This document shows positions 1 to 304 of a stretch of 11,326 nt of DNA, piece by piece. The notes below the pieces were generated by a model. It had not been told where the DNA came from. It worked only from the letters and a program-made list of their open reading frames with translations, and made no database searches. Positions within the stretch are counted from its first letter, which is position 1. Every line of letters starts with the position of its first letter. The stretch lies in the NCBI GenBank assembly GCA_046881885.1, contig JBKSMP010000004.1:1-11326 (forward strand). Direction: 5' to 3'. A program made the position numbers and the translations under genes. Source of the stretch: Opitutales bacterium (lineage in GTDB: Bacteria; Verrucomicrobiota; Verrucomicrobiia; Opitutales; UBA9783).

Positions 1-304
1 TAAGTTTGCGAAAAACTTTTTCTTTACAAACAGAAAATGGCTTGTTAGAATTGAAAAAGCAATGGAACTCTTAGCAAAAGTGCACGAAGCACTTAAAAAT
101 AGGCAGACAGTAGGTCGCCCGCTCTGCAAACATTCAAAAAATACTTGCAGACACAAAACATTGGACTTGGAAAACGAACACGACTTTTCTTCCCCTAAAG
201 AAAGGCCAAAACCCATTTGTTTATCTTAAAATACGTTAATTAAGACACTCATACTTTAGCTTTTTAACTCAACACGAACCTGTAGGATTATATATGAACA
301 CACC
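1..304 (+). repeat. Copy A of a ~300-bp direct repeat. The partner lies at about 11020..11326. It spans a small ORF, a 64-bp spacer and the start of the next gene.
   Basis: Hand alignment: 161..304 against 11183..11326 has 10 mismatches in 144 nt, and 198..269 is a 72-nt perfectly identical block. Upstream (about 5..160 against 11025..11182) similarity is weaker but clear, with shared strings tctttacaa, tagaattgaaa and gtcgccc. Confidence 0.9.
2..229 (+). CDS. Small basic conserved hypothetical protein. Its 5' end is uncertain: the frame is open to the window edge, and the ATG at 62 is conserved in the paralog.
   Basis: The frame is open from position 2 to TAA at 227..229 and reads ...KAMELLAKVHEALKNRQTVGRPLCKHSKNTCRHKTLDLENEHDFSSPKERPKPICLS. 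It aligns at protein level with the 11018..11251 ORF, sharing the tail LDLENEH-FSSP-ERPKPICLS. In that tail, 3 of the 5 nucleotide differences are synonymous in this frame (ttg/ctt Leu, cct/ccg Pro). It was too short or truncated to appear in the supplied ORF track. Confidence 0.45.
   Translation, partial: KFAKNFFFTNRKWLVRIEKAMELLAKVHEALKNRQTVGRPLCKHSKNTCRHKTLDLENEHDFSSPKERPKPICLS

Follow-up and report, generated by a model that had tools for sequence, protein, structure and literature searches.

Near-identical direct repeats at the ends of an 11-kb stretch of gut Opitutales DNA are probably recombining 5′ heads of a multi-copy gene cassette

In Helicobacter pylori, babA, babB and other outer-membrane-protein paralogs undergo concerted evolution of their 5′ regions. 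Among type III effectors, terminal reassortment leaves a promoter and an N-terminal signal shared while the C-terminal domains vary. The locus described here resembles both. As in babA/babB, near-identical 5′ regions that include upstream sequence stand before diverged gene bodies, the shared part shows little synonymous divergence, and the copies are mosaic. Unlike babA/babB, a small upstream ORF forms part of the shared front end, which we call the head, the genes belong to an unannotated HExxH/OTU family of uncultured Opitutales, and no role in phase or antigenic variation is indicated. As in terminal reassortment, a conserved promoter and the N-terminal ~80 residues are found on divergent bodies, some of which carry an extra OTU domain; the signal, however, appears Sec-like rather than type III, and the bodies are still homologous, though synonymously saturated. 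A third comparison is offered by tnaC, secM, mifM and ermCL. Here, too, a short ORF lies on the same strand directly upstream of a gene for a predicted secreted protein, and its C-terminal ~22 residues are conserved in two of the head types described below (A and B). In contrast to those systems, this tail is not family-wide, no alternative structure or terminator was found, and the downstream gene is not a component of the secretion machinery.

The window, by which we mean the whole 11,326-nt stretch of Opitutales DNA that was analyzed, carries one copy of the head at each end. Aligned with MAFFT, positions 1-304 match 11000-11326 in the same orientation, the repeat itself comprising 1-304 and 11022-11326, and a repeat search of the window recovered 141-302 against 11163-11324 as a direct repeat of 89% identity at an offset of 11022. 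An exact recount gave 10 mismatches over the 144 nt of 161-304 against 11183-11326, and a longest exact match of 72 nt (198-269 = 11220-11291). These figures equal those of an earlier, sequence-only reading of the window, which had also described the promoter-proximal half as much more diverged; indeed, identity between the left and right copies is 0.62 in 22-61 and 0.57 in 62-157, versus 0.92 in 158-229 and 0.94 in 230-293. The other direct repeats in the window reach at most 34 nt at ~70% identity, and the likeness of the two window-end copies is far above chance. A 30-nt stretch within an asnB remnant (8176-8205), 80% identical to part of the block, was set aside as a chance match: the two have only a 13-nt core, CCAAAACCCATTT, in common, with no wider similarity around it.

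Each copy consists of a sigma70-type promoter, an ORF of 55 or 56 aa, a 64-nt spacer with AGGA, and the ATG of an HExxH gene. The 72-nt block covers, as the earlier reading had it, the last ~10 codons of the small ORF, stop codon included, and 40 nt of the spacer; the ORFs at 62-229 and 11081-11251 fit this description. The features of the two heads and of the cassette that follows the left one are:

1-304, plus strand: left copy of the gene head, type A, its 5′ end cut by the window start (alignment, repeat search, recount).
23-51, plus strand: predicted sigma70-type promoter of the left copy, TTTACA-17 nt-TAGAAT (pattern scan, conservation).
62-229, plus strand: small ORF of the left copy, 55 aa (ORF list, family alignment).
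184-205, plus strand: hairpin H4, CTTTTCTT-CCCCTA-AAGAAAGG, a candidate element (folds).
198-269, plus strand: 72-nt block identical to 11220-11291, within a putative homogenized tract from ~158 to ~540.
230-293, plus strand: spacer between the two cistrons, also the main-gene 5′ UTR; AGGA at 284-287.
294-1553, plus strand: main cassette gene, encoding an HExxH (HEFLH) protein, with one in-frame TGA at 522-524.
1804-2481, minus strand: convergent ~200-aa partner gene, found in every locus long enough to show it.
10956-11041, plus strand: upstream extension of the right (type B) head, common to L009, L014 and L010a.
11042-11070, plus strand: predicted promoter of the right copy, TTTACA-17 nt-TAGAAT (pattern scan).
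11081-11251, plus strand: right-copy small ORF (56 aa, type B), orthologous to P0001 in L008.
11206-11227, plus strand: hairpin H4 of the right copy (folds).
11252-11326, plus strand: spacer, its AGGA at 11306-11309, then the opening 11 nt of the following HExxH-family gene, whose ATG is at 11316.

The antisense ORFs 10909-11238 and 269-601 were rejected as not common to both copies.

The sequence-only reading had raised the possibility that the element occurs at these two sites only. A profile search instead found the head at at least seven distinct loci, all on contigs or MAGs of uncultured gut Opitutales. The head follows leuS in L003-L007, an HAD gene in L008 (a 97%-identical strain whose head matches the right copy), and a ~200-aa partner-type gene in L009. 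L010 holds two tandem cassettes (a and b), L014 and L016 are GenBank MAG contigs of uncultured Opitutales, and the head is also present in L013 and L020 and, in part, in L011 and L012. By type, the copies are distributed as follows: A, the left window copy and L010b; B, the right window copy, L008, L009, L014 and L003; C, L010a; D, L013 and L016; and E, L020. The sources are all gut-type metagenomes or uncultured Opitutales MAGs, one of them from the Hadza, and the MAG CAZIZB01 holds several HExxH-family contigs. A protein-pattern scan of the JGI metagenomes revealed no relatives, and exact-pattern scans of genome and metagenome contigs for the hairpin block gave 0 matches.

Two of these loci can be described in more detail. 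In L010 (1080-5697), a head and its HExxH gene are followed by a ~190-aa minus-strand gene and then by a second head with an HExxH gene, and from this tandem pair we conclude that the cassette duplicates as a unit. The stretch 3742-4071 of the same locus is an ortholog-like copy of the left window head, 97-100% identical to it. In L020 (616-1161), an insert of ~280 nt separates the small-ORF core of the fifth head variant from its gene-proximal block; two copies of part of the block (ACGACTTTTC...) are present, of which the proximal one is open and in frame with the main-gene ATG, on a contig of low coverage (1.25).

The multi-copy nature of the head bears on why the window has one at each end. 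Both window ends fall inside heads, and independent assemblies stop at similar places: L001 ends at window position 10964 and L008 at 11294, L011 and L012 start inside the spacer, and L015 starts at residue 76 of the HExxH gene. Because several independent assemblies break in or at the edge of the head, the bracketing can be read as a side effect, and the window is probably bracketed by heads for the reason that contigs end in a multi-copy repeat. The position of the repeats at the window ends, where short-read assemblies break, is also what might make their similarity look like an assembly duplication artefact, a possibility that the earlier reading had named. The copies, however, differ by ~40% in their proximal halves, and assemblies made independently from other samples contain each of them beside its own flank (the right copy beside the HAD gene in the 97%-identical L008, the left type in L010), which leaves an artefact with a vanishingly small probability.

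It had further been proposed that the interval between the repeats could undergo recombinational deletion or duplication. Two direct repeats that lie 11 kb apart and are identical over 72 nt might indeed mark a mobile or excisable unit, be it a composite transposon or a substrate for deletion and duplication. Yet neither the ORF list nor the Pfam and NCBIfam scans revealed a transposase, an integrase or IS features in the window, the repeats are gene heads present at many unrelated loci, and there is no junction contig among the fetched loci, so that we have no evidence for such an event. The interval also holds housekeeping genes, and since rpmB, prmC and PFOR lie inside it, its loss is expected to be deleterious. 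Taken together, we regard a mobile 11-kb unit as very improbable. A tRNA search of the window found none.

The interval contains several other ORFs of note. An orphan divergent pair comprises 6275-7351 (minus strand, 358 aa, with the motif HEISH) and 7395-7895 (plus strand), neither with a significant Pfam or NCBIfam match; the 358-aa ORF was rejected as a member of the HExxH family, with an hhalign probability of 0.2. The 89-aa ORF at 7991-8260 (minus strand) resembles no more of asparagine synthase than its C-terminal part (PF00733, by the gene table of L001) and is likely a gene remnant.

The main gene behind the left head is interrupted. The TGA at 522-524 splits it into ORFs of 76 aa and 319 aa, the homologs all have TGG (Trp) at this position, and the head in L003 is followed by an uninterrupted 602-aa homolog of 294-1553 whose N-terminus and HEFLH region match both window pieces. 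Recoding of TGA to Trp was ruled out: since TGA ends two other genes of the window and Trp is encoded by TGG throughout, 522-524 is best read as a nonsense mutation. The window copy is thus probably a recent nonsense pseudogene, or else a sequencing error.

The family to which this gene belongs is small, with 15 relatives among 5.8 billion proteins, several of them from one NCBI MAG (Opitutales bacterium). Its H-E-x-x-H columns are invariant or nearly so in 16-17 members. No PDB sequence and no significant Pfam or NCBIfam peptidase family match was found for it; Pfam gave only E = 0.09 to M91 and E = 0.08 to MPTase-PolyVal, for one member each, and the AlphaFold model of the protein is of low confidence (pLDDT 53). 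Judged by eye rather than by a predictor, the N-terminus (MNTPCKMLAMAWMAL...VHA, then D) looks like a Sec signal peptide. An OTU-like cysteine protease domain (PF02338, motif DVPADGNCAF) is present at the C-terminus of P0010, P0011, P0013 and P0016, apparently twice in P0013. The composition of these OTU-bearing members suggests secreted effector-like proteins of a gut Opitutales lineage, and the HExxH/OTU family appears so far to be restricted to uncultured gut Opitutales. A second HExxH subfamily (L017, L018) has neither a head nor a small ORF upstream.

Convergent to the HExxH gene lies the partner gene, with homologs in the same arrangement in L003, L010, L011, L013 and L016. Its product starts with a hydrophobic stretch and is matched by neither Pfam nor NCBIfam; it may have an immunity- or partner-like role. 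As the partner gene always accompanies the HExxH gene, the duplicated unit is a three-gene cassette and not a 300-bp module.

With the unit so defined, the reading that we consider probable is that the two repeats are the 5′ heads of a paralogous, multi-copy cassette of low-GC gut Opitutales, and that their distal near-identity stems from recombination or gene conversion. Exchange among paralog heads would have produced the near-identical distal half, including the 72-nt block that runs across the small-ORF stop. The homogenized tract would extend from ~158 to ~540, which is ~80 codons into the main gene. The promoter-proximal halves would represent two older types, A on the left and B on the right, and each head would drive its small ORF and HExxH gene, presumably as one transcript.

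Synonymous divergence provides the main evidence. Among close copies, main-gene codons 1-76 have a pS of 0.17-0.35, whereas the HExxH region of these pairs reaches 0.7-1.0. Similarly, the A and B small ORFs differ with a pS of 0.49 over codons 1-34 but of 0.15 over codons 35-56. Identity between types A and B is 0.56-0.65 in 41-157; the A/B copies then reach 0.85-0.97 in 158-272, the top-conserved segment and slightly above the adjoining coding head, have ~0.9 in the first ~80 main-gene codons (except L003), and ~0.5 in the gene body.

The relationships among copies also change from one segment to the next. In 41-157, the right window copy has an identity of 0.95 to L014 and of 0.59 to the left window copy; in 273-304, a segment of only ~30 nt as the window ends at 11326, it has 0.88-0.91 to the left copy and L010b and 0.66 to L014. 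The right copy is thus a mosaic, B-type in its 5′ half and A-like around the ribosome-binding site. L003 is B-type in 41-157 (0.89-0.91) and an outlier in the gene head (0.65), and L010a has 0.43 in the block and 0.82-0.86 in the gene head. These comparisons involve loci that are not necessarily from one genome and include the two copies in the window itself. The marks of a conversion tract are present: at least two copies per genome, low pS and low noncoding divergence within the tract, and segments with discordant relationships. Recent gene conversion, one of the explanations put forward in the sequence-only reading, therefore gains support from the low synonymous and noncoding divergence of the head, the saturated body and the mosaic segment relationships.

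A companion claim, that noncoding sequence is conserved better than the coding sequence around it, did not hold up. What had been seen appears to be a homogenized tract that starts in the middle of the small ORF and runs from ~158 to at least ~540. Moreover, the spacer of the more distant paralog L003 has an identity to the window of 0.65-0.77, comparable with the pS of ~0.5 in the L003 head; it diverges at about the synonymous rate, and therefore the noncoding block is not obviously under strong selection. We infer that the noncoding part owes its identity to conversion rather than to selection; some nucleotide-level selection may act on 158-272. Overall, the pattern is ordinary for a duplicated gene family, and the 72-nt identity is probably a conversion tract, not proof of a noncoding functional element.

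The promoter can be judged from the copies in which the flanking sequence has diverged. The pattern TTTACA-17-TAGAAT has two matches in the window, both in heads, where 0.01 would be expected. Across a 10-copy alignment, CTTTACAA is invariant, TAGAAT is nearly so, and the 17-nt spacing is kept while the sequence of the promoter spacer varies; the hexamers and their spacing are conserved likewise in the L020 head. The predicted head promoter is well supported by this conservation across copy types. The suggestion that the conserved block acts as a functional promoter survives in part: the hexamers and the 17-nt spacing are kept in all copy types, but they sit in the diverged proximal half and not in the identical block. 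Immediately before its −35 hexamer, the right (type B) head has two TTGCAT hexamers 21 nt apart (11005-11031). They lie within the ~85-nt upstream extension that this head shares with L009, L014 and L010a, and could be a regulator-binding site.

The small ORF begins close to this promoter. Its ATG lies 10 nt 3′ of the −10 hexamer and has no Shine-Dalgarno sequence, and translation probably starts on an mRNA with little or no leader. The 55-aa and 56-aa products are 58% identical and have the C-terminal tail LDLENEHxFSSPxERPKPxCLS in common (PKPICLS in the window copies); the difference in length between A and B is an in-frame 3-nt indel that keeps the frame open. HMM searching recovered a family of about 9 variants, with only five relatives among 1.84 billion representatives and with L11, R19, C22, C30, N39 and E40 invariant; Pfam and NCBIfam scans gave nothing significant. 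The last 22 codons have a pN/pS of 0.2-0.4, while the N-terminal half is near neutral between types A and B; the ratio is ~0.3 between types B and C and 0.65-0.97 in the other comparisons. By these measures, the small ORF represents a real, fast-evolving family under weak constraint outside the B versus C comparison and the C-terminal tail.

Such a family could encode a protein that acts in trans with the HExxH protein, for example as a cytoplasmic inhibitor or chaperone, in which case the head would be the front of a co-duplicated two-gene operon. The invariant residues, the frame kept open through the A/B indel and the low B versus C ratio are in line with this idea. The higher ratios in the other comparisons are not, and neither are the frameshifts in L009 and type D (L013/L016), the missing ATG in L010a, the AlphaFold model with one helix and otherwise disorder (pLDDT 55), or the HExxH subfamily of L017 and L018, which does without the upstream ORF. 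We consider a trans-acting role quite improbable.

A further explanation places the function of the head in cis. The distal block would be held constant mainly by cis-regulatory selection, with the small ORF serving as a leader peptide whose translation would be coupled, through its tail, H4 and the spacer, to transcription or translation of the secreted-protein gene, in the manner of tnaC, secM or mifM. As befits a leader peptide, the ORF is short and lies immediately upstream on the same strand, and the best-conserved segment among the A/B copies (158-272) includes its end. The restriction of constraint to the last 22 codons, with a near-neutral N-terminal half, also fits this explanation, because only the residues in the ribosome tunnel would matter. 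On the other hand, the tail is conserved in types A and B only; types C, D and E, like P0019-P0022, lack it or have another one. The spacer tells a similarly divided story. The AGGA stands 6 nt before the main-gene ATG (294 and 11316), and the motif TTAATTAAGACACTCA...TTAGCTTTTTAAC is also present in L011 and L020. The stretch TTAATTAAGACACTCA..TTAGCTTTTAAC is kept in L011, and in L020 even where it lies outside the small ORF, which speaks for cis-regulatory selection; the near-synonymous rate at which the L003 spacer diverges speaks against it.

As for RNA structure, H4 has an invariant 8-bp stem and a variable loop among the A/B copies, is the sole helix recovered in every A/B fold, and places its 3′ arm within the identical block. 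Each copy type has some hairpin near the small-ORF end, different from H4 outside A/B (that of L013 has z = −2.9). Four small helices are 92% paired over 8 copies, with H1-H3 89-100% paired, including in the frame-shifted type D. However, Rfam gave no relevant match to the head at E ≤ 1, and shuffled controls folded about as stably as the leaders themselves (z = −1.23 for one and −0.10 for the other; ~0 in the distal parts). Covariation is weak, with 4 compensatory pairs versus 1.4 ± 1.0 in shuffles (9 of 500 reach 4), in an alignment of 8 sequences from which the structure itself had been derived. The folds do not consistently pair or mask the ribosome-binding site and have no recurrent masking structure, and an intrinsic terminator after H4 was rejected, as no plus-strand site was found. 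The structured regulatory RNA that had been envisaged for the block is thus not borne out. A leader-peptide or RNA mechanism for the head is possible, and we regard cis-regulatory selection as the main cause of the constant block as unlikely.

Overall, what looks like a “bracketed” 11-kb unit is probably the trace that a multi-copy paralog head ordinarily leaves, combined with assembly breaks in repeats. The analysis defines an unannotated three-gene cassette, made up of a small ORF, a predicted secreted HExxH protein, with an OTU domain in some members, and a partner of ~200 aa; its front ends appear to evolve in concert through recombination. The head itself is a new instance of a well-known genome feature; the small ORF is the part that could hide more. 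In a tentative and rather unlikely extension, the head would be a lineage-specific regulatory device, in which a leaderless ~55-aa ORF with embedded hairpins and a conserved UTR controls HExxH/OTU effector-like genes, perhaps through the nascent peptide or by translational coupling, and recombination moves the head between effector bodies. If the small ORF is indeed regulatory, it would provide a handle on the control of an effector-like family in these uncultured gut bacteria.
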